Below, one piece after another: positions 1,993-51,177 of a DNA stretch of 64,000 nucleotides (its first letter is position 1; each line of letters begins with the position of its first letter). The stretch lies in contig JBAXOD010000002.1 in NCBI GenBank assembly GCA_037133435.1, positions 23,545 through 87,544 of the forward strand. Reading direction: 5' to 3'. Made by a program: the position numbers and the translations under genes. The DNA is from Candidatus Moraniibacteriota bacterium (lineage in GTDB: Bacteria > Patescibacteriota > Minisyncoccia > Moranbacterales > UBA1568). Below the pieces are notes generated by a model. It did not search any database. It was not told the DNA's origin and worked only from the letters and a program-made list of their open reading frames with translations.

Positions 1993-2339
1993 TTCTCAGT
2001 ATCTCTCTCAAATCTCATGTCGAGCTGTACATTCGAAAATTTCGATAGGAGCGCCAACCAGAGGTTGGTCACCCTCTCAGTAAAAAACCATGAAAAAGGA
2101 GAGAAGGCTACTAACTAACCTGACGAGTTTTGAATGGTTTGCCCGCCCTCGACGATCGCTTGGCGAGACGGTCGGGGTCCGCCCGAATCGCTACGCAATC
2201 GTTGCGGACGGGCCTGCCCGCATTGCTAGGCAAAGCATTGCAGGCGGGTAGCCGAAATTTTCGGATTTCAGCCGGCAAGCGGATTTTTTGGCTTATATGT
2301 GCGTTGAGATTTGAGAGAGACACTAAAGGAAGCAAGGGG

Positions 2340-2768
2340 AGCGGGTGATGGAAATTTCGTCCTCGATGCCTGCGGGCATCTCGTAGTCCAGGGCAGCGCT
2401 GAATGCTTCCTAATTCGGTCGCATTCATCGACGCTCGACTATTCGCCTTCGCTCACGTCTCGCTTCTGCCCGTTCGATTCCCATCACCCAATTTTCTCCG
2501 AAAATTTGAGCAGGTGATGGAAATCCTCCTCGCTCCGACTCGGAGCCAGGGCGCTACACACAGAATGCTCGCTTACTCGCATTCGACTCGCGCCCTTCGA
2601 TTCCCACATGGACCGCGGGTGATGGAAATTTCGTCCTCGACGCCTGTTGGCGTCTCGTAGTCCAGGGCAGCGCTGAATGCTCCTATTCGTCGCATTCATT
2701 GACACTCAACTGCTCTCCGCCAACTGGCGGATTGCGTCTCGCTTCTGCCCGTTCGATTCCCATCACCA
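2340..2768. repeat. Three tandem degenerate units (~110-150 bp) each beginning GCGGGTGATGGAAAT and ending CGATTCCCATCACC, i.e. mimicking the 5' acceptor and 3' T-arm/acceptor of the adjacent tRNA-Gly
   Basis: Direct reading: unit starts at ~2340, ~2508, ~2619; ends share gtctcgcttctgcccgttcgattcccatcacc; 12-bp closing helix with one A.C mismatch. Confidence 0.6.
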
Positions 2769-2775
2769 CAAGCAA

Positions 2776-2804
2776 GCAAAAAGGACTCATATGAGTCCTT
2801 TTTA
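2776..2804. terminator. Bidirectional rho-independent terminator hairpin aaaaaggactcatatgagtccttttt
   Basis: Perfect 10-bp palindromic stem flanked by A-run and T-run. Confidence 0.6.
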
Positions 2805-2814
2805 CTTGCCTATG

Positions 2815-2887
2815 AGCGGGTGATGGGAATCGAACCCACCTCTCGACCTTGGAAGGGTCGCATAATAAGCCACTATACGACACCCGC
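2815..2887 (-). tRNA. tRNA-Gly (anticodon TCC)
   Basis: Manual fold: acceptor GCGGGTG/CACCCGC, anticodon stem CGACC/GGTCG, loop CTTCCAA, T-arm GTGGG-TTCGATT-CCCAT. Confidence 0.8.
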
Positions 2888-2997
2888 TTTCTTTCGACAG
2901 CATTATAAGCTTCGAAAACTGCTAAAGCTTCAATAGCTTTTGCAGAAATCCTCAAACCGTTACTCCCTGCCATCGGTCTACCGTTCAATGGTATCTG

Positions 2998-3750
2998 CTA
3001 TCTGTTCTCCGAAACCGTTCCCGACCCGGTCAGTCCCGCGAACGGATCGATATGGATGTTCTCCGCCGCGATACCGATACCGAGGAGAAGCGCTTTCATG
3101 GCATCCGCGAATGCCGGTGCGCCTATCACATAATAGAGCGATTCCCGCCATTCTGGCAAGTATTTCCCTATCATTTCCGCACTGATACGGCCTCGTTCCT
3201 CGCCCGGCTCGGTTGAAGGTCCGGTCTCGGCCGACAAGGTGTACACGTAGGTGAAGTCCGGAAGAATGATCGCCCGGATTTCCGAATGGAATGGCACGTC
3301 CTTTTGAAAACGGTTCGACGATATCAGGACGTATTTTCTCGTGTCGTTTTTCGCGACCGCTTCCAGAAGCATCGACCGTGCCGGGGCCATACCGACGCCT
3401 CCCGACAGGATCGCTATCGGTCGTGAATCCCCTTCCGGAACGGTCGCGTTTCCGAGCGGAGCACTTACCGAGATTTCCTCGCCCGCCCTGAGGTCCCACA
3501 TGGTCTTCTTGAAACCCGTCATGCCCTCGCGCATCACGAATACCAGCTCGGCCTCGCTTGGCGCGGACGCAAGCGAAAGCGGGCGCATCCCGGCACGGAC
3601 GTCCGGCTCGACAAGCCGCTCAGCCGGCACCCGAAGCATCACATACTGCCCGGCACGATACGAGTACCCTTCCGGCTTGGAAAAAAAGAATGCGAGCGTG
3701 CGATCGGCGGTCTCCTCGACCCGAATCAACGTGATGGGATAGAATTCCAT
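2998..3750 (-). CDS. FNR-like oxidoreductase, FAD/NAD(P)-binding domain protein
   Basis: RPLSLAS (RxYS-type FAD motif) and GGVGMAP (GGxGxxP NAD(P) motif); 250 aa. Confidence 0.6.
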   Translation of the reverse strand: MEFYPITLIRVEETADRTLAFFFSKPEGYSYRAGQYVMLRVPAERLVEPDVRAGMRPLSLASAPSEAELVFVMREGMTGFKKTMWDLRAGEEISVSAPLGNATVPEGDSRPIAILSGGVGMAPARSMLLEAVAKNDTRKYVLISSNRFQKDVPFHSEIRAIILPDFTYVYTLSAETGPSTEPGEERGRISAEMIGKYLPEWRESLYYVIGAPAFADAMKALLLGIGIAAENIHIDPFAGLTGSGTVSENR

Positions 3751-3856
3751 ACTCCTAATTCTTTATTCTTTATTCATCATCTAACGATTGTCGAGGCGCT
3801 CGGAATCGCTCAGGCATTCGCTGGGCGTCCGGCGTATGTCGGACGAACCAGGGCGG

Positions 3857-4025
3857 GTCTACCTCCCCTGCGGAGCCACGACCGTCCACTGGATGGTCGG
3901 ACACGAATCTTGTCGGGGCACCCGGAATCGGACCGGGACTACCTCCCCTTCGGGGCCACGACCGTCCATCGGGACGGTCGGATAACGTTCTTGTCGGGGC
4001 ACCCGGAATCGGACCGGGACTACCT
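3857..4025. repeat. Two tandem ~84-bp units, each = tRNA-Pro 3' half (cttgtcggggcacccggaatcggaccgggactacct) plus a GC hairpin spacer
   Basis: Exact 36-bp copies at 3909-3944 and 3990-4025; flanking spacers ccacgaccgtcca...ggtcgga also repeated. Confidence 0.7.
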
Positions 4026-4064
4026 GCTCCCAAAGCAGACGTACTACCACTATACTATGCCCCG
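3994..4064 (-). tRNA. tRNA-Pro (anticodon TGG)
   Basis: Manual fold of reverse complement: acceptor CGGGGCA/TGCCCCG, anticodon stem TCTGC/GCAGG, loop TTTGGGA, T-arm CCCGG-TCCGATT-CCGGG. Confidence 0.8.
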
Positions 4065-4090
4065 ACTATTACCCCGACAATAACGCTATC

Positions 4091-4126
4091 CCCAAAGCAG
4101 ACGTACTACCACTATACTATGCCCCG
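4091..4126 (-). pseudogene. Orphan duplicate of tRNA-Pro(TGG) 5' half (through anticodon loop)
   Basis: cccaaagcagacgtactaccactatactatgccccg identical to 4029-4064 but lacks 3' half. Confidence 0.65.
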
Positions 4127-4369
4127 CCAAATAATTTCAATTTTCTCTTTACGGACGAGGCTCGCCCTGATGGGCGACCCGACAATGAACTCGTCCCCGA
4201 AGCAGGCGTACTACTGACATTCATATCTCTTCCCAGTCTACGGACTCTCCGGGAAAAAGCAATCCCGCCTCCTGAAAGAGGCGGGACGGCCCTATCTTTT
4301 ATTTCGTGCAGTACGGAACCCGCCAATGGAAAACCGTCCCTCCGACGGAATCCCGCGAATACTCGCGTA

Positions 4370-4660
4370 CTATTTGACTGCCTCTTTGAGCGTCTTTCCG
4401 GCGGTGAATTTCGGAACGGTCATGGCCGGAATGGTGATCTTGGCCTTGGTCTGGGGGTTGATTCCCTCACGGGCCGCACGGTTCGATACGCGGAACGTAC
4501 CGAATCCGGTGATGGTCACCTTATCGCCCCTGCGGAGCGCGTTCGTAATCTCCTCGACGGCCGTCTCGATGACCGCCTCGACGTCCTTCTTGGAAAGGTC
4601 GAGTTTCGCAACGATCGACGCGACCAGCGCGTCCTTGTTTACGTTTGCCATTGTGTTCAC
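4370..4660 (-). CDS. hup: HU family DNA-binding protein
   Basis: 96 aa; MNKxxLV...GFGTFxVxxRAAREGxNPQT signature of HU/IHF. Confidence 0.9.
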   Translation of the reverse strand: MNTMANVNKDALVASIVAKLDLSKKDVEAVIETAVEEITNALRRGDKVTITGFGTFRVSNRAAREGINPQTKAKITIPAMTVPKFTAGKTLKEAVK

Positions 4661-19648: not shown

Positions 19649-19744
19649 TAGCCTCCAAAGCTTCGAAAGAGAAGCTTCGAGAACCTTGGCAAGAGGTCGG
19701 GAACACGGTTAAAATGAGGAGCCGTTCCCGTTCAATGGCACTTG

Positions 19745-19899
19745 GAGCCTATCCGTTAGGAACATACCTCCTGCGCCTAAAATCTTCGGCGTACACGCGC
19801 GTACCCCTTGTCGTCTTATCCAGATAGGGCTCCGCGGGTTACCCGCCTTTCCACTCGAAGCTTATACGGCTCGTGACGGAGACCCTGACGGATAGGCTC
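19745..19899 (-). mobile_element. 155-bp MITE-like element copy 1 (inverted relative to copies 2 and 3)
   Basis: Terminal inverted repeats gagcctatccgttagg / cctgacggataggctc; >85% identical to 22579-22735 and 32646-32800 after reverse complement. Confidence 0.65.
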
Positions 19900-19987
19900 T
19901 TATTCTCCTCCGAGTGTTCCCTGTTTACTGTTTACTGTTTACTGTTCATTGTTGTCAGTTGTCAGTGGTTAGTTATCAATCAAATAC

Positions 19988-20049
19988 GGAGAGATGACCG
20001 AGTGGTTGAAGGTACCGCTCTCGAAAAGCGGCAGGCCCGAAAGGGCCTC
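19988..20049 (+). pseudogene. 62-nt 5' fragment of tRNA-Ser(CGA) (acceptor through first half of T-loop), exact duplicate of 20391-20452
   Basis: ggagagatgaccgagtggttgaaggtaccgctctcgaaaagcggcaggcccgaaagggcctcgagggttcg identical in both copies; diverges inside T-loop. Confidence 0.75.
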
Positions 20050-20122
20050 GAGGGTTCGTCCGGCATACGCCGGACGCCCCGCGCATGCGGGGCGAATCCC
20101 ACATTTAAGGAGAAGGCTGCAT

Positions 20123-20386
20123 ATGTTCTATGTCTATATCCTCAGAAGCAAGAAAGACAATGACTTCTATATCGGGTCAACCGGAGATTTAAAAAGAAGA
20201 ATGAAAGAACATAATCGCGGAGTAGTGGAATCAACAAGACACAGACGACCTCTTGAACTCCTATGCTATGAAGCGTACAACTATAAAGAAGAAGCTCAAG
20301 CGAGAGAGCGTTTTCTAAAAAGCAGTGACGGAAAGAAAGATTTACGGAAACGATTGACTCGCAGTTTGGAAAAAAAGGAAAAATAA
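20123..20386 (+). CDS. Small GIY-YIG nuclease-domain protein (YhbQ/UPF0213-like)
   Basis: MFYVYILRSKKDNDFYIGSTGDLKRRMKEHN = GIY-YIG motif; AAGGAG SD 8 nt upstream of ATG at 20123; 87 aa. Confidence 0.75.
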   Translation: MFYVYILRSKKDNDFYIGSTGDLKRRMKEHNRGVVESTRHRRPLELLCYEAYNYKEEAQARERFLKSSDGKKDLRKRLTRSLEKKEK

Positions 20387-20390
20387 GTAC

Positions 20391-20477
20391 GGAGAGATGA
20401 CCGAGTGGTTGAAGGTACCGCTCTCGAAAAGCGGCAGGCCCGAAAGGGCCTCGAGGGTTCGAATCCCTCTCTCTCCT
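20391..20477 (+). tRNA. tRNA-Ser (anticodon CGA)
   Basis: Acceptor GGAGAGA/TCTCTCC, anticodon loop CTCGAAA, long variable arm CAGGCCCGAAAGGGCCTC, T-arm GAGGG-TTCGAAT-CCCTC. Confidence 0.85.
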
Positions 20478-20486
20478 CACTGAAAG

Positions 20487-20523
20487 AAAATCAGGATCCC
20501 ATTTTGGGGTCCTGATTTTTTTC
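20487..20523 (+). terminator. Rho-independent terminator after tRNA-Ser
   Basis: aaaatcaggatcccattttggggtcctgattttttt. Confidence 0.65.
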
Positions 20524-20529
20524 GGTTTG

Positions 20530-20665
20530 AATGGGAAAAAGGGATTCGAAAGCCGGACTGCTAGCAGGCAGGAGGCGGGGTCGCGACCTCGAGCACGGCC
20601 TTCGGAGGCCGGACGCTCGAGAGTTGTGACCGAGTCCCTCCCTTTCCTCAAAAGCGAATGACCGT
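20530..20665 (+). ncRNA. Structured tRNA-Ser-derived element 1 (14-bp closing helix GGAAAAAGGGATTC/GAGTCCCTCCCTTTCC); candidate small RNA or pseudo-tRNA
   Basis: 3' end gagtccctccctttcctca resembles tRNA-Ser 3' end; sits between two terminators. Confidence 0.3.
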
Positions 20666-20706
20666 CCCGATCATATTGGGGCGGTTATTCGTTTCTTGTG
20701 AGATGG

Positions 20707-20790
20707 AAGAGGGATTCGAAGGGATATGGAAATGTGAACGATTTCACGTTTCCATGTCCCCGGCCCGCAGGGGAATCCCTCCCTTTCCTC
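20707..20790 (+). ncRNA. Structured tRNA-Ser-derived element 2 (closing helix GGAAGAGGGATTC/GAATCCCTCCCTTTCC, internal 13-bp hairpin ATGGAAATGTGAA/TTCACGTTTCCAT)
   Basis: Direct reading of complementary segments; immediately followed by terminator. Confidence 0.3.
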
Positions 20791-20796
20791 AACGGA

Positions 20797-20833
20797 AATC
20801 AAAAGACTCCTGAATGGGGTCTTTTGATTTTTG
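20797..20833 (+). terminator. Rho-independent terminator
   Basis: aaatcaaaagactcctgaatggggtcttttgattttt. Confidence 0.65.
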
Positions 20834-21030
20834 TGTGTTGTGTTAATGGATGGATTCGAAATTGCAGGCATCTCAGGAAATCCGGCATTTCATTTGTCGC
20901 ATAGCGTCTGTCTTTCCACCGAAATGGATTGCGTGTCAAAGGTACGGATGATACAGTAAGGATGTTTTCGGATAATTCGGAAGATACCGAACAGTACCAT
21001 TCGAAGAATCAGACAGCCAAACGCTCTCAT

Positions 21031-22593
21031 ATGAGGATATCTTTGGAAAGTATTTTCTATCGCGTCATCCTTCCTTTCATGTTTCTTGAGGGATTTCTCC
21101 TGAGAATCGGCAATCTCAGAAAAGGTTTCTGGATCGACGAGTATCTCACCATCGAAACCGCACAGAAACTGACGTTTTTCAATCATACTGACACGGTCGG
21201 TCTCAACCCTTATTACGTCGGCCTCCGTCTGGTCGCATACCTCTTCGGTACCGACGAGACCGCCGTACGGATCATTTCCGTCCTGTTCGGTCTTGCGTCG
21301 GCATTCATCCTTTTCCTGATCGGAAAAAAATATTTTCACGAACGCGTCGGGCTCATCTCATCCTGTATCTTTCTGCTTACTCCCTTAGGCATATCGCTCG
21401 GTCAGGAAGTACGGCCATATTCCATGCTCCTTTTCCTTTCCCTGTGCCAACTATTTTTCTTTCTGGAAATATTGCAGTCCGTCTCCGAAGGTAAGCGGGT
21501 GAAAAATATCCGATTCATGCACCTCTCCGTCCTTACCCTGCTGATCCTGTTCATCCACCTGTCATCGGTATTATTCCTCGTCTCCGAAATGATCGTCCTT
21601 TCGTTCATAACGATCATCGAAAAACGGTGGCCGACGGACGTCTTCAAATATTATCTCGCTTGTTTGTTCCCGATGTTCGCGTTCTTCGCCTGGTTCTATC
21701 GTGACATCCTTACAAAACTCGGATTTATCGTTTCGGACCGGAATTACATTACCGTCTATTCAAACAGCGGACGCTCTTTCGCCGATGTGATCGTTTTCAT
21801 CCAGAATATCTCAACGGGACTCATCCCGGAGAAGCCAAAGGAGAGCCTGCTGGTATTCCTCCTTGCGCTCATTCTGATCGGAGCATCCATCGGCATTTGC
21901 CATTCTTTCATACGACGCGCCACGATCGTAAACGCCCTCTTTGGAATAACGATTCTCCGGATCTGCATCGGGCTGTCGATGCATGACTTCATTCCGAGAC
22001 ACGCGTTCATATTGACCCCTCTTTTTTCACTCTTTCTCGGAATATCCCTCTACAACCTTTCAAAAGTTCGCAGGGTTCCAAAGGTGGTCATTTTTTGCGT
22101 GTACGGATTCTTCATTCTGTCCCTCGCATATCTTTCACTGATTTCGCAGAAAGCCGAGAAAGCCGATCCGGGGAGACAATGGGGGTCGGTCGCCGATTTC
22201 GTCGAACGAAACGCCGGACCGGAAAAAGCGGTCATCGTGGCAGTCCCCTATCTGAAAGGGATATTCACCCATTATTATCATGGAACGACTCCGATCATCA
22301 CTATGGATGATTACAAGGAAAAATCACGAAATACCCTCATAGAGAACAATGAAATCGGTGTCTCGTTCATAAATCAAGAGCTGACCGATGCGTTGATCGG
22401 CAAGAGTATCGGGTTTCGAGAAATTCTGGTCGTCAAAGACGTTATCGCCTTAGATTTGAGCGATGTGGACAAACGCTTCGATACGGCTTTAGCAAGTCGT
22501 TTCATCCGGATCGATACAACCTGTTTCCCGGCTTCAGCGAAAATCCTGTGCGTCGAACGCTATCGAAGAGCCGACCAAGAGCCTATCCGTTAG
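21031..22593 (+). CDS. GT-C fold membrane glycosyltransferase (ArnT/PMT-like)
   Basis: ~12 TM, GFWIDE in first loop, N-terminal hydrophobic domain followed by C-terminal soluble domain; start at MRISLES. Confidence 0.5.
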   Translation: MRISLESIFYRVILPFMFLEGFLLRIGNLRKGFWIDEYLTIETAQKLTFFNHTDTVGLNPYYVGLRLVAYLFGTDETAVRIISVLFGLASAFILFLIGKKYFHERVGLISSCIFLLTPLGISLGQEVRPYSMLLFLSLCQLFFFLEILQSVSEGKRVKNIRFMHLSVLTLLILFIHLSSVLFLVSEMIVLSFITIIEKRWPTDVFKYYLACLFPMFAFFAWFYRDILTKLGFIVSDRNYITVYSNSGRSFADVIVFIQNISTGLIPEKPKESLLVFLLALILIGASIGICHSFIRRATIVNALFGITILRICIGLSMHDFIPRHAFILTPLFSLFLGISLYNLSKVRRVPKVVIFCVYGFFILSLAYLSLISQKAEKADPGRQWGSVADFVERNAGPEKAVIVAVPYLKGIFTHYYHGTTPIITMDDYKEKSRNTLIENNEIGVSFINQELTDALIGKSIGFREILVVKDVIALDLSDVDKRFDTALASRFIRIDTTCFPASAKILCVERYRRADQEPIR

Positions 22594-22735
22594 GGTCTCC
22601 GTCACGAGCCGTACGATCTTCGAGCGGAAAGGCGGGTAACCAGCGGATCCCTCTCCGTAGATACGGCGACAAGGGGTACGCGCGTGTACGCCGAAGATCA
22701 TAGGCGCAGGAGGTATGTTCCTAACGGATAGGCTC
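22579..22735 (+). mobile_element. 155-bp MITE-like element copy 2
   Basis: gagcctatccgttagg...cctaacggataggctc; overlaps stop codon of upstream gene. Confidence 0.65.
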
Positions 22736-30865: not shown

Positions 30866-32640
30866 ACGAGAACGAATCGGAAACCGTACCGAAAGTGGCC
30901 ATTCCGCCGACCATCACCGTGAAGGCGTTTTCCGATACCCTCGGACTGCCCGTCGCGCAGGTAATGACGGAACTCATGAAAAACGGCATCTTCGCGACCA
31001 TCAACGAGGAGATCGATTTCGATACCGCGAGCATCATCGCGACCGACCTCGGCATGGAGGCGGTCCCGGCCATCGAATCCGGCGATGCTGATAAGCCGCT
31101 CTCGCTCGAGGACATGCTTGACATCTGCGCGAAAGAAAAGAACTCGGACAAGCGCCTCGAGCCACGCGCACCGATCGTCACGATTCTCGGACATGTCGAC
31201 CACGGCAAGACCACGCTCCTCGACACGATCCGCAAGGCGAGCGTCGCGACCGGGGAAGCGGGTGGCATCACACAACATCTCGGCACCTATCAGGTCAAGA
31301 AGCGCGGCAAACTCATCACGTTCATCGACACCCCCGGACACGAGGCGTTTTCCGCGATGCGCAAGCGCGGCGTCTCTATCGCCGACATCGCCATCCTCGT
31401 CGTCGCGGCCGATGACGGCGTCCAGAAGCAGACCAAGGAAGTCATCACGTACCTCAAGGAGCGCGGACTCCCCATCATCGTGGCCATCAACAAGATCGAC
31501 AAGCCGGACGCGAATATCATGCGCATCAAGCAGGATCTTGCCGAGAATGACATCCTCATCGAAGAATGGGGCGGGAAAATCCTGTGCTCCGAGATCAGCG
31601 CGAAACAGAACGTCGGCATCGATTCACTGCTCGAAAACATCCTCCTCGTCAACGAGGTGGAAGAATTTTCCGCCGACGCGAAGCGCAGCGGACTCGCGGT
31701 CATCCTCGAATCGCACCTCGACAAGCAGAAGGGCCCAGTCGCCACGAGCCTGGTCCGGACCGGCACCCTCAAGGTCGGTCAGGACGTGATCGCCGGATCG
31801 GTCTTCGGCCGTATCCGTCATATGGAAAACTACGCCGGCAAGACCGTCGAATCCGCCGGTCCCTCGACGCCGGTCATCATCTACGGCTTCAGCGATACTC
31901 CGAAGGTGAACGACGTCGTTTCGGTCGCCAGCGGCAAGGCATCGGCACGGGTCCGTTCCGAACGGGCCCAGACGACCGCTAAGACCCTTATCAGGGCCAA
32001 ATCCGAGGAAGAAGGTGTCGAAGGTCCGAAGCGGCTTTCCTTCGTCCTCAAGGCGGATGTGGAAGGCTCGCTCGAGGCGATCGAACAGATTCTCGGTACC
32101 ATCGTCCACGACGAAGTCGCGCTCGAGGAGATTTCCTCCGGGGTCGGAGCCATCACCGAATCCGACGTGAAGATGGCGGAGAGCGCGGGGGCGGTCATCT
32201 TCGGATTCAACGTGGAACCGACCGCGGTCGCCCGACGCATGGCCGAAAAGAGCGGCACGGCGATCGAGAGCTTCGGAATCATTTATAAACTCGTCGACCG
32301 GGCGAAGGAGCGGCTGTCCGAGTTATTGCCGCCGGAAACGATACGCACCGATCTCGGCACCCTGTCCGTCCTCGCGGTCTTCAAGACCGGCAAACGCGAC
32401 CAGATCGTCGGCGGACGCGTCGGTAATGGAAAACTCTTCAAAGGTACGAAAGTCGACATCCGCCGCAAGGACGAGGTCGTCGGCACCGGTATCATCGTCA
32501 ATCTCCAGCAGAACAAACAGAACGTCGAGGAGGTCGGGCAGGGAAACGAATGTGGCGTCGTCTTCGAAGGCAATGCGAAAATCGCGGATGGGGATACGCT
32601 TCTCGTCTATCGCGAGGAAACGAAGCGCCGGACGCTCTAG
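30862..32640 (+). CDS. infB: Translation initiation factor IF-2 (short form)
   Basis: [12 protein letters not shown] (G1), DTPGHEAF (G3), NKID (G4), C-terminal beta-barrels; 592 aa. Confidence 0.9.
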
Positions 32641-32645
32641 ACTTA

Positions 32646-32800
32646 GAGCCTATCCGTCAGGGTCTCCGTCACGAGCCGTACGAGCTTCGAGCGAAAAGGC
32701 GGGTAACTTGCGGAGCCCTATCGAGATAAGGCGACAAGGGGTACGCGCGTGTACGCCGAAGATCATAGGCGCAGGAGGTATGTTCCTAACGGATAGGCTC
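32646..32800 (+). mobile_element. 155-bp MITE-like element copy 3
   Basis: gagcctatccgtcagg...cctaacggataggctc immediately after infB stop. Confidence 0.65.
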
Positions 32801-34888: not shown

Positions 34889-35026
34889 CAAAATAGCACC
34901 GGAAATATACGGTTCTACGGGTTTACGAAGTATCCGGCGCATGCCGGACGATTATAGATTTCTATCCGGCTACCTCATATCCACGCGACAAGCATACCGT
35001 GGTTTCCCGGTACTCCGACGAATCAG

Positions 35027-35382: not shown

Positions 35383-35472
35383 GCCGAGGTGGCGCCCGCC
35401 CGCAACGCTTCGCGTAGCGATGCGGGCAGGAAACTGGTAGACGCACCAGGTTTAGGTCCTGGCGGGAGCAAG
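35383..35472 (+). pseudogene. Partial tRNA-Leu copy: acceptor+D-stem, 36-nt GC hairpin inserted in D-loop, anticodon arm, no T-arm
   Basis: gccgaggtggcg[cccgcccgcaacgcttcgcgtagcgatgcgggcagg]aaactggtagacgcaccaggtttaggtcctggcgggagcaag vs intact copy 12 nt downstream. Confidence 0.7.
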
Positions 35473-50193: not shown

Positions 50194-51177
50194 TCATTTC
50201 TTCCGTTTCTTCGCATGAAATTCCTCATGAATCTCGCGGAGCCGTTCGTTCGTCACATGGGTATACACCTGGGTAGTGGTAATGGAAGAATGGCCCAGCA
50301 TCGCCTGCACGGAACGGATGTCCGCCCCGTTTTGCAACAGATCGGTCGCGAAGGAGTGCCTCAGCGTGTGTGGATGGACATCCTTGACGATGCCGGCCTT
50401 GGCGGCGTATTTCTTCACCAATCGCTGTATACTCCGTTCGGTAAGCCGCATTCCGGCGTGTCCCTGCCGTTCCTTGGGCGCGCGTTTCGACTTGGGGATG
50501 GCGATAAAGAGCGCCTTGTCCATATCGCTTCGCTTTTCCAAATATCGCATAAGCGAATCTCGTGCGTCATCGGAGAGGAACACTACGCGGAGCTTGGATC
50601 CCTTGCCGCGCACGCTGAATTCACCCTTTTTCAGGTTCACCGAATCGCGATCAAGCGAAGTGAGCTCGGAAACGCGCAATCCTGCGGAAAACAGCAGTTC
50701 GAGGATCGCCCGGTCACGCAGAGCGCGAAGCGACCCGCCCGAAGCGGCAGCAAGGAGCCGTTCCACCTCGTCGAGCTCGAGAAACCCTACCTCGCGCGTC
50801 GGCGCCTTGCCGACCGCGATCTTCTCGGCCGGTACGGTATATTCGTCTTCGCGGGCCAGGTACTTGAGAAACGAACGAAGCACCACGATATGATATGTCT
50901 GGGTCGACTTACGGAGCGTTTCGCCACGCTCGTTGGTGACACGATTAAGCGAGAGACGGTATTCCCGGACACGTTCTGCCGTGATATCCGCCGGACTCTT
51001 GATGCCGCTCATTTCGAAAAACTTCCACAACGAACGCGTATAACTCTCAAGCGTCCGCGGAGAACGGTTCAGCTCTATCTCGAGATGTTCGAGAAACCGC
51101 TTCGCGAGCGCTTCGATCCGAGTCTCTGATTTCGGTGTCCCTGCATTCATATCCATTAAGTATACATGAAAAGTCAC
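50194..51177 (-). CDS. Tyrosine site-specific recombinase (XerC/XerD/phage-integrase family)
   Basis: C-terminal HTLRHSFATDLLQNGADIRSVQAMLGHSSITTTQVYTHV with catalytic R..H..R..Y. Confidence 0.85.
   Translation of the reverse strand: MTFHVYLMDMNAGTPKSETRIEALAKRFLEHLEIELNRSPRTLESYTRSLWKFFEMSGIKSPADITAERVREYRLSLNRVTNERGETLRKSTQTYHIVVLRSFLKYLAREDEYTVPAEKIAVGKAPTREVGFLELDEVERLLAAASGGSLRALRDRAILELLFSAGLRVSELTSLDRDSVNLKKGEFSVRGKGSKLRVVFLSDDARDSLMRYLEKRSDMDKALFIAIPKSKRAPKERQGHAGMRLTERSIQRLVKKYAAKAGIVKDVHPHTLRHSFATDLLQNGADIRSVQAMLGHSSITTTQVYTHVTNERLREIHEEFHAKKRKK

Follow-up and report, generated by a model that had tools for sequence, protein, structure and literature searches.

RtT repeats, which lie behind the tRNA-Tyr genes of Escherichia coli, have been known since 1978, and we know of no accepted origin or function for them. 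We report here on a stretch of 64,000 nt from a contig of Candidatus Moraniibacteriota bacterium (JBAXOD010000002.1; hereafter the window), in which the tRNA-Ser(CGA) gene is followed by an array of comparable layout that includes two structured elements, element 1 (El1) and element 2 (El2). We favor, with about even confidence, an interpretation in which these are RtT-like tRNA-distal repeat units that were generated by recombination and have been exchanged horizontally. In E. coli K-12, the tRNA-Tyr 3′ end recurs four times downstream of tyrT: one extra copy separates tyrT from tyrV, and the other three follow tyrV at a spacing of 178 nt. Each of the tyrT units begins with GGGGAAGG, the complement of CCTTCCCC. 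The Rfam model of the family, RF00391, scores the E. coli units at 133–137 bits, which provided a positive control; its consensus closing helix is made up of the 5′ arm and the tRNA-Tyr 3′ copy and is followed by an unpaired ccaCCACCA. An RtT unit is found in 4700 of 5426 complete E. coli genomes, at 1–9 places per genome, so the repeats are dispensable and variable in copy number. One E. coli unit, overlapping tpr, is annotated as the small RNA RttR (gene rttR); in a passage of PMC3318445 that cites Bosl and Kersten (1991), experiments are stated to have shown that RttR is encoded by one tyrT repeat unit, and a stable RNA freed from the tRNA transcript is known in E. coli alone.

In the window, a single tRNA-Ser(CGA) gene was placed by ARAGORN and Rfam at 20391–20478 on the forward strand. 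The locus has the order R0-T1-L1-core1-R1-T2-L2-core2-R2-T3-L3, where R denotes a direct and L an inverted copy of the tRNA 3′ end and T a terminator hairpin, and comprises the following features.

20391–20478 (+): functional tRNA-Ser(CGA) gene; its own 3′ end (R0) is 20461–20479, and CCA is not encoded.
20484–20522 (+): T1, an intrinsic terminator hairpin with a 15-bp stem, followed by a run of seven T.
20529–20550 (+): L1, the 5′ arm of El1, a decayed inverted copy of the tRNA-Ser 3′ end.
20551–20631 (+): core 1, a small hairpin and a long hairpin.
20632–20650 (+): R1, the 3′ arm of El1, GAGTCCCTCCCTTTCCTCA, the orphaned 3′ end of a GGAAAGG-type tRNA-Ser allele.
20652–20694 (+): T2, a 20-bp hairpin (−29.7 kcal/mol) between El1 and El2.
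20698–20720 (+): L2, the 5′ arm of El2, which copies the tRNA-Ser 3′ end in inverted orientation and is 83% complementary to R0 over 23 nt.
20721–20772 (+): core 2, an 18-bp hairpin plus CCCCGGCCCGCAGGGG.
20773–20791 (+): R2, the 3′ arm of El2, GAATCCCTCCCTTTCCTCA, a second copy of the 3′ end of the GGAAAGG allele.
20792–20834 (+): T3, an intrinsic terminator paralogous to T1.
20849–20860 (+): L3, a third inverted arm, GATGGATTCGAA, without a clear downstream partner.

R1 matches the tRNA-Ser 3′ end (20461–20479) at 16 of 19 positions and R2 at 17 of 19; R1 and R2 differ by one mismatch, and R0 and R2 at two positions. With up to three mismatches allowed, this 19-mer has three matches in the window as compared with 0.06 expected by chance, and within the 64 kb the Ser-type arms occur at the tRNA-Ser locus only. 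The copies are spaced 171 and 141 nt apart, and the units are arranged in tandem directly downstream of the tRNA-Ser gene and on the same strand. These data bear out the proposal of an earlier sequence-only reading that the two elements are derived from tRNA-Ser and that their 3′ strands mimic its 3′ end: the 3′ arms are 3′-end copies of the allele present in two relatives (L176 and L159, described below), and the 5′ arms are inverted copies. The terminators that had been placed on either side of the pair are also present (T1 before El1, T3 after El2), but T2, L3, and the possibility of pairing across the terminators had been overlooked. The 3′ half of core 1 resembles a decayed tRNA-Ser variable arm together with the 5′ strand of the T arm, and CCCCGGCCCGCAGGGG in core 2 looks like a remnant of the variable arm. 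Neither ARAGORN nor the Rfam tRNA model recognized anything tRNA-like, and no cloverleaf, within 20530–20790.

Relatives of the locus were collected as 49 loci in a metagenome scan with a 32-mer of the tRNA, to which L176 was added through protein look-ups; a homolog search with the flanking glycosyltransferase returned no match beyond the gene itself. Orthology of several of the loci is indicated by an upstream methyltransferase that they have in common. L155 is 97.3% identical to the window over 2.2 kb, but a segment of exactly 310 nt, with one end within T1 and the other within T3, is missing, such that El1 and El2 are absent and the single terminator is a T1/T3 hybrid. L176 is 89% identical over 3 kb; its tRNA-Ser has the acceptor sequence GGAAAGG and the 3′ end GAATCCCTCCCTTTCCTCA, which is the sequence of R2, and is directly followed by T2. 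L2, El1, El2, and a GIY-YIG nuclease gene that precedes the tRNA-Ser gene in the window are absent from L176. In L072, a diverged T2 homolog occupies the same position directly after the tRNA-Ser gene. At its 3′ end, the tRNA-Ser allele of L176 and L159 agrees with R1 at 18 and with R2 at 19 of 19 positions, and the comparison shows that R1-T2 is the orphaned 3′ end and terminator of the resident allele. In the window and in L159, direct repeats of the 3′ end flank extra DNA that is missing from the empty site in L176, where the tRNA gene and T2 are uninterrupted, an arrangement of the kind seen with attachment (att) repeats.

Whereas the coding DNA of L159 and L161 is 65–68% identical to that of the window, the module tRNA+T1+L1+core1 of L161 is 89.7% identical over the 204 nt that start at the tRNA, and the module R1-T2-L2-core2-R2 of L159 is 88.4% identical over 173 nt, including about 89 nt of R1-T2-L2 that are identical as read by eye from the sequences rather than computed. 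The tRNA-Ser allele of the window (acceptor GGAGAGA) is found in the distant L161 and L152 but not in the closer L176. Unit A of L159 consists of DNA that is absent in L176; its insertion point directly follows the tRNA 3′ end, of which the unit has a further copy at its own end. These identities indicate that modules are shuffled between genomes. The pattern is that of neither neutral debris nor a conserved gene and fits DNA that is horizontally exchanged and quickly gained and lost; since El1 and El2 come and go in close relatives, they are to be regarded as accessory DNA rather than as a proven small-RNA gene.

Folded in isolation, El1 (−68.3 kcal/mol, z −5.2) and El2 (−49.0 kcal/mol, z −5.9) are far more stable than shuffled sequence, and to this extent the two structured elements that the sequence-only reading had reported at 20530–20790 are present, although their closing helices, a mismatch, and a hairpin had been described in part incorrectly. 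The closing helices, given as 13–14 bp, consist of 14 pairs in El1, two of them G-U, with a 1/3 internal loop, and of 15 pairs in El2, with a 3-nt and a 1-nt bulge and a longest unbroken run of 9 bp, and are therefore less regular than had been stated. In both elements, the closing pairs leave a UCA tail. The 13-bp hairpin of El2, described as perfect, is real but holds one U-G pair and extends to 18 bp. In place of the single mismatch said to be shared with the units behind tRNA-Gly, the 3′ strand of the Ser units has a 3-nt bulge and the Gly units have a G-U pair; the two are hence not one and the same mismatch.

Each L arm can pair with the downstream R (L-core-R) or, equally well, with the upstream R across the terminator (R-T-L). 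When the whole array (20391–20870) is folded, R0-L1, R1-L2, and R2-L3 are paired and the cores are self-folded (−254 kcal/mol, z −12.9); this R-T-L register is chosen in both the minimum-energy and the centroid structures, and the L-core-R register of the sequence-only reading loses. Between El2 and its L159 ortholog, 25 of 36 predicted pairs are unchanged, three are kept by a one-sided change, six are broken, and two are gapped. None shows a compensatory change, and the structural conservation of El2 is weak. Between El1 and L161, three G-to-A changes in the 5′ arm weaken the closing helix. A check proposed in the sequence-only reading, a joint covariance model of the Gly and Ser units, could not be built because the cores are not alignable and MAFFT placed the Gly units out of register; an alignment of six Gly, His, and L168 Ser units had a mean column identity of 48%. 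Single-sequence nhmmer searches with each unit retrieved orthologs only, plus marginal cross-hits between Gly and His units (E-values 0.04–0.3).

As in RtT, the units of the Ser array lie in tandem directly downstream of a tRNA gene and in its orientation. Each unit ends in a copy of the last ~16–19 nt of the tRNA, has a complementary start, and forms a hairpin with a single-stranded tRNA-like tail, and in both systems the units are dispensable and vary in copy number within species. The Ser units differ from RtT in that the partner is a tRNA-Ser of Moranbacteria, a group of the candidate phyla radiation (CPR), the cores are unrelated in sequence, and CCA is not encoded; in addition, strong intrinsic terminators separate the units, whereas the E. 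coli spacers, which were viewed by eye and not scanned, have no obvious hairpin-plus-T-run. RF00391 (gathering score 45 bits) has no match up to an E-value of 10 in 19700–21000 or 2100–4400, where Rfam as a whole yields at that threshold tRNAs and chance microRNA-type hairpins only; at the gathering thresholds, the entire window likewise yields just tRNAs and chance matches of the latter type. A sequence profile made from the four E. coli units has no match in the window, and neither this profile nor RF00391 matches the other CPR units. By these comparisons, El1 and El2 classify as RtT-like in layout and not as members of RF00391.

Enterobacteria are not alone in having the RtT design, in which an inverted arm and a structured core are combined with a direct copy of the tRNA 3′ end. 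It recurs at tRNA-Ser, tRNA-Gly, and tRNA-His in CPR bacteria and at tRNA-Ser in Fibrobacter and a Clostridiaceae genome, by which a long-unexplained feature of E. coli is newly extended to other tRNAs and to distant phyla. The window itself contains a second set, and the link that had been drawn between it and the Ser elements holds in that the architecture is alike.

2338–2769 (−): three units behind tRNA-Gly(UCC) that are built in the same way, namely U1 (2769–2615), U2 (2614–2507), and U3 (2490–2338).

The conserved structured core of these Gly units is also present in units of other CPR lineages, one behind tRNA-Gly (L158, 1966–2137, plus strand) and one behind tRNA-His (L166, 2944–3116, minus strand). 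In the Gly and His units, the 5′ arms reproduce the local tRNA sequence in inverted orientation, including the T-loop (TTCGATT to AATCGAA, TTCGACT to AGTCGAA, and TTCAATT to AATTGAA). Read by eye, they match the real tRNA over 17–24 nt in the Gly units of the window and the His unit of L166 and over ~11 nt in L158, and they pair better with the real tRNA than with the 3′ arm of their own unit. The arms always follow the local tRNA, some cores are common to different tRNAs, and the Gly/His-type units may represent a distinct RtT-like family. Behind the tRNA-Ser(CGA) genes of Fibrobacter, units with arms that match tRNA-Ser score 27–32 bits with RF00391, which is below the gathering score, and have E-values of 1e-4 to 2.5e-3 with the RtT profile. 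Downstream of Fibrobacter tRNA-Ser (L031, L049, L056, L037, L023, and L126), RtT-like units are accompanied by hairpin arrays made up of the tRNA 3′ end and its inverted copy. In the Clostridiaceae locus L047, a single unit lies behind tRNA-Ser(GCU), its end being an exact 3′-end copy with CCA. A non-tRNA copy of the tRNA's own 3′ end was found at most 500 nt downstream of 15 of 72 CPR tRNAs and of 5 of 137 controls (Fisher p = 1e-4, the loci not being independent); the control set consisted of tRNA-Ser loci from unrelated bacteria, which had been returned by an overly general genome-collection pattern. These occurrences provide a comparative handle on the origin of RtT-like units and on a possible RNA action. 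Such arrays break metagenome assemblies at tRNA genes and can be mistaken for novel small-RNA genes.

Under recombination and horizontal exchange, the array could have arisen as follows. Incoming DNA that carries its own tRNA-Ser 3′ end and terminator, or an entire tRNA-Ser gene, would recombine with the resident gene in the segment from the T-loop to the acceptor. The gene would be kept intact, and the resident 3′ end and terminator would be orphaned in a downstream position (R1-T2). The array would grow and shrink through recurrent events of this kind and through unequal or microhomology recombination between blocks of R and terminator. The inverted arms would reflect the weak directionality that the near-palindromic T arm gives to recombination or to fold-back copying, and the closing helix would then be a consequence of having an inverted and a direct arm around each core rather than a designed RNA stem. 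The anatomy of the array, its two competing pairing registers, the orphan R1-T2, the empty sites and the varying presence of the units in close relatives, the allele incongruence, the high identity to distant relatives, the hotspot character of the locus, and the recurrence at other tRNAs are observed, whereas the enzyme, the exact crossover point, and the origin of the inverted arms are what we infer, the obvious candidate for the enzyme being a T-loop-specific tyrosine integrase. Integrase subfamilies that cross over in the tRNA T-loop were reportedly described by Williams in 2002. The scheme resembles that of tRNA att repeats and cis-mobilizable elements (CIMEs), where foreign DNA lies between direct repeats of a tRNA 3′ end, and the gene is made whole again by the incoming copy while its former end is displaced. 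It also resembles accretion at tRNA att sites, where units are stacked by repeated events and show a patchy spread and a similarity at odds with genome relatedness. The array is unlike att repeats in having units of just 100–170 nt without integrase or cargo and unlike classical attL/attR pairs in having an inverted copy of the att-like segment in each unit.

Several points weigh against an origin by recombination of this kind. (i) The crossover of the L155 deletion is inside the terminator and not inside R, so it represents ordinary recombination and is uninformative on site-specific integration. (ii) The units are very small for integrative elements, and secondary deletion must therefore be assumed. 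(iii) The sole tyrosine recombinase gene in the window is Xer-like and lies at 50194–51177, ~30 kb away, and none is adjacent to the array. (iv) The sense (tRNA) strand folds more stably than the antisense strand in 10 of 11 units, which fits an RNA role. (v) Compensatory changes occur in the P3 hairpin of the tRNA-Gly units, and the small hairpin of El1 shows one clean compensatory change between the window and L161. (vi) Base pairs supported by covariation have been reported for RtT itself (bioRxiv 10.1101/2020.02.04.933952).

The last three points are also the ones that favor the main rival explanation, which we consider somewhat unlikely, namely that the units are RtT-type functional or processed small RNAs. 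A transcript that reads through T1 and T2 would fold the 5′ arm onto the tRNA-like 3′ arm, in imitation of stacked acceptor and T stems, and RNase P, RNase Z, and the CCA-adding enzyme would release a stable hairpin that might have a regulatory function or serve as a decoy for tRNA-binding proteins. Besides the strand preference and the z scores of the isolated elements, this explanation is consistent with the architecture, which is as in Rfam RtT with its annotated unit RttR, and with the compensatory changes, which extend from the small hairpin of El1 to the Gly/His-type cores (14 of 28 pairs, four sequences). A precedent is provided by the rrn dual-terminator small RNAs rrA, rrB, and rrF (PMC8144298). 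Like El1 and El2, these are short structured sequences between two terminators after a stable-RNA gene, and they are made by read-through, as El1 and El2 would be; however, they do not copy the upstream gene's 3′ end, and they are conserved single units. Against an RNA role, El1 is preceded by the strong T1 (15-bp stem and seven U), and no promoter-like site was found between T1 and El1/El2; both elements are missing in the 97%- and 89%-identical genomes; eight of 36 pairs are broken or gapped in the El2 ortholog; and the competing R-T-L register is favored energetically. Furthermore, the Gly/His 5′ arms match the real tRNA and pair worse with their own 3′ arms, the helices lack terminal acceptor base pairs, and RF00391 has no match even at an E-value of 10. 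The absent promoter-like site, the absence from relatives, and the broken El2 pairs also weaken the earlier claim that El1 and El2 are discrete small RNAs delimited by terminators, as does the fact that each T travels with a 3′-end copy in a duplicated block, which makes the terminators passengers and not the boundaries of RNA genes. The small-RNA idea is unproven for El1 and El2, though not refuted, the E. coli counterpart of like design being annotated as a small RNA. Equally unproven, though possible, is a role as RNA processed from read-through transcripts.

Less likely than an RNA role, and in our view improbable, is that the arrays are local mutational by-products that involve no foreign DNA. 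Replication template switching or fold-back repair at natural hairpins, such as those of the terminators, the T arm, and the variable arm, possibly after breaks made by the GIY-YIG nuclease, would have copied the tRNA 3′ end both ways, with unequal crossing-over to follow. In its favor, every interval between arms is a hairpin, and El1 is a near-palindrome centered on a variable-arm-like hairpin; template switching is known to produce hairpins, along with seemingly compensatory changes, in one step (PMC8794818), the locus has a gene for a GIY-YIG nuclease, and the L155 indel has its breakpoints in paralogous terminators. However, the module identity of 88–90% at a coding identity of 65–68% is left unexplained, as are the incongruence of the tRNA alleles and unit A of L159, which is novel DNA relative to L176, and the palindromes are interrupted exactly where a single fold-back would give continuity.

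The R-T-L palindrome also invites comparison with integron attC sites and the attP site of CTX phage, in that a hairpin presents a duplex copy of the target, here the tRNA 3′ end. The order tRNA-T-L-core-R is the expected product of single-strand integration of an R-T-L-core circle, and the modules are shuffled between genomes like cassettes. The likeness is one of layout only, as no recombinase, conserved extrahelical bases, or circles are shown for the El1/El2 units, and the window contains no IntI-like gene. A broader proposal, which we regard as quite improbable, would make RtT-like units pan-bacterial, protein-less mobile modules that integrate at tRNA genes via the folded R-T-L hairpin by single-strand recombination of the attC/CTX type. 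If true, it would account for the arms rewritten to the local tRNA around cores that are related to each other (E. coli Tyr to Fibrobacter Ser; CPR Gly to His) and would explain why the order tRNA, terminator, inverted arm, core, direct arm is constant.

The array further resembles repetitive extragenic palindromes (REP), bacterial interspersed mosaic elements (BIME), and REP doublets forming hairpins (REPIN) in having short imperfect palindromes of alternating orientation with variable linkers, a location at gene ends, and two hairpin registers. REPs, however, are genome-wide, follow one consensus, and are mobilized by REP-associated tyrosine transposases (RAYT), whereas the arms of the array copy the adjacent tRNA and differ by locus. 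Ser arms occur at one locus in the 64 kb, which is part of the genome, and neither a Y1 transposase nor a reverse transcriptase was found among the 30 open reading frames (ORFs) of the window that were scanned with Pfam.

The idea that the R-T-L palindrome is an extended bidirectional terminator or insulator for a highly transcribed tRNA gene, with the L-core-R hairpins being incidental, is again less likely than an RNA role and to us highly improbable: this register does win the global fold, R1-T2-L2 has remained the same in the window and L159, in contrast to the diverged core 2, the L072 palindrome lies between tRNA-Ser and an apparent convergent gene end (a stop codon seen by eye, with no ORF call), and the order tRNA, terminator, inverted copy recurs for Gly, His, and Ser in several CPR lineages, but three successive terminators without an intervening gene serve no obvious purpose, L176 has T2 without L2, L155 lives without the array, and pairing of L with the 3′ half of the tRNA would compete against tRNA folding.

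Other identities were considered and rejected. With regard to peptide coding, a 51-aa ORF at 20658–20813 starts within the T2 hairpin, and no sequence resembling a ribosome-binding site is seen upstream of its start. A tRNA with an intron, or a group I intron, was rejected as no intron model matched; published tRNA introns of Patescibacteria are at position 35/36 of the anticodon loop and not in the T-loop (PMC13011429). An (A/G)UGAGAA motif 3′ of the 5′ arm allows a hammerhead-like reading, but the essential CU is absent and there is no Rfam match. A guide-plus-scaffold RNA of the TnpB or IscB type was considered because of the 17–24-nt matches of 5′ arms to the tRNA gene; Pfam identified no such nuclease among the scanned ORFs.

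The tRNA-Ser locus is a hotspot, and on the 5′ side of the gene it contains the following features.

19982–20058 (+): pseudo-tRNA, an exact 77-nt duplicate of the 5′ part of tRNA-Ser, up to the TTCG of the T-loop (99–100% identity).
20059–20094 (+): double-hairpin insertion of 36 nt in the T-loop of the pseudo-copy, followed by AATCCC.
20123–20386 (+): gene for a GIY-YIG nuclease of 87 aa (PF01541), between the two tRNA-Ser 5′ copies.

The partial 5′ copy gives a weak tRNA match (19988–20062, 21.9 bits). Contigs of 544 nt in three independent k=141 assemblies (loci L002–L004) are exact cycles (403+141) of 20059–20461; as the direct repeat is shorter than k, these 403-nt cycles point to tandem or circular copies in the population. 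Closed cycles were seen for the GIY-YIG unit alone and not for El1 or El2. In another CPR lineage (L137 and L148), the insertion at the tRNA-Ser 3′ end is a GIY-YIG gene whose terminal inverted repeats measure 11 nt (AAACTTCGTCA); on either side of it is a 14-nt direct repeat of that end, CCCTCCCTCTCCGC.

The first hairpin of the T-loop insertion, TCCGGC-NNNN-GCCGGACG, stands right after GGTTCG in two pseudo-tRNA copies (Ser and Pro-UGG) and is followed by a second hairpin. The Pro copy is the third tRNA-Pro 3′-end copy, whose T-loop contains a sequence-related insert (3808–3843, minus strand), and the first hairpin recurs at 34933–34950 (plus strand), after a degenerate T-loop-like gggtttacgaagta, downstream of tRNA-Pro(CGG). 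All three T-loop-type hairpins (20059–20094, 3808–3843, and 34933–34950) lie upstream of an ORF. Other hairpin inserts are found at or beside the same T-loop position in the CPR loci L157, L154, and L132. A phage or plasmid attP was rejected as a candidate: viral contigs contain no exact match to the 3′-arm 19-mer or to the T-loop insert.

Additional repeats surround the tRNA genes. A repeat of ~160 nt with 16-nt terminal inverted repeats (GAGCCTATCCGTTAGG) is present at 19745–19906 (plus strand), 22577–22735 (minus strand), and 32639–32800 (minus strand) and has the look of a small mobile element; that the copy at 19745 was truly inserted follows from the empty site cactt/attctcc in L176. An element of ~330 nt, bounded by 17-nt inverted repeats (ATCTCTCTCAAATCTCA), is located at ~2000–2335 (minus strand) in the window and also downstream of tRNA-Ser in L152; its orientations in the two are opposite, it adjoins a tRNA-distal array each time, and its ends resemble the tRNA-Ser 3′ end. 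Just 5′ of the tRNA-Ser copies, short tandem repeats of ctgtttac and gtcagtt occupy 19915–19975 (plus strand), and similar gttgtcagt repeats precede tRNA-Ser in L072, L159, and L161.

All five tRNAs of the window carry partial copies. In the region 3789–4180 (minus strand), two copies of the 3′ third of tRNA-Pro(UGG) lie downstream of the gene. [quoted passage not shown] A decayed 3′ copy lies downstream of tRNA-Pro(CGG). A tRNA-Leu 5′ fragment with a hairpin insert in its D-loop (35384–35470, plus strand) precedes the functional gene, and 5′ tRNA fragments with a D-loop hairpin insert are likewise found just upstream of tRNA-Ser in L152, L155, L161, and L072, with two in tandem in L155. The D-loop inserts of these tRNA-Leu and tRNA-Ser fragments are positioned after GGTTG or GGCG and before AA.

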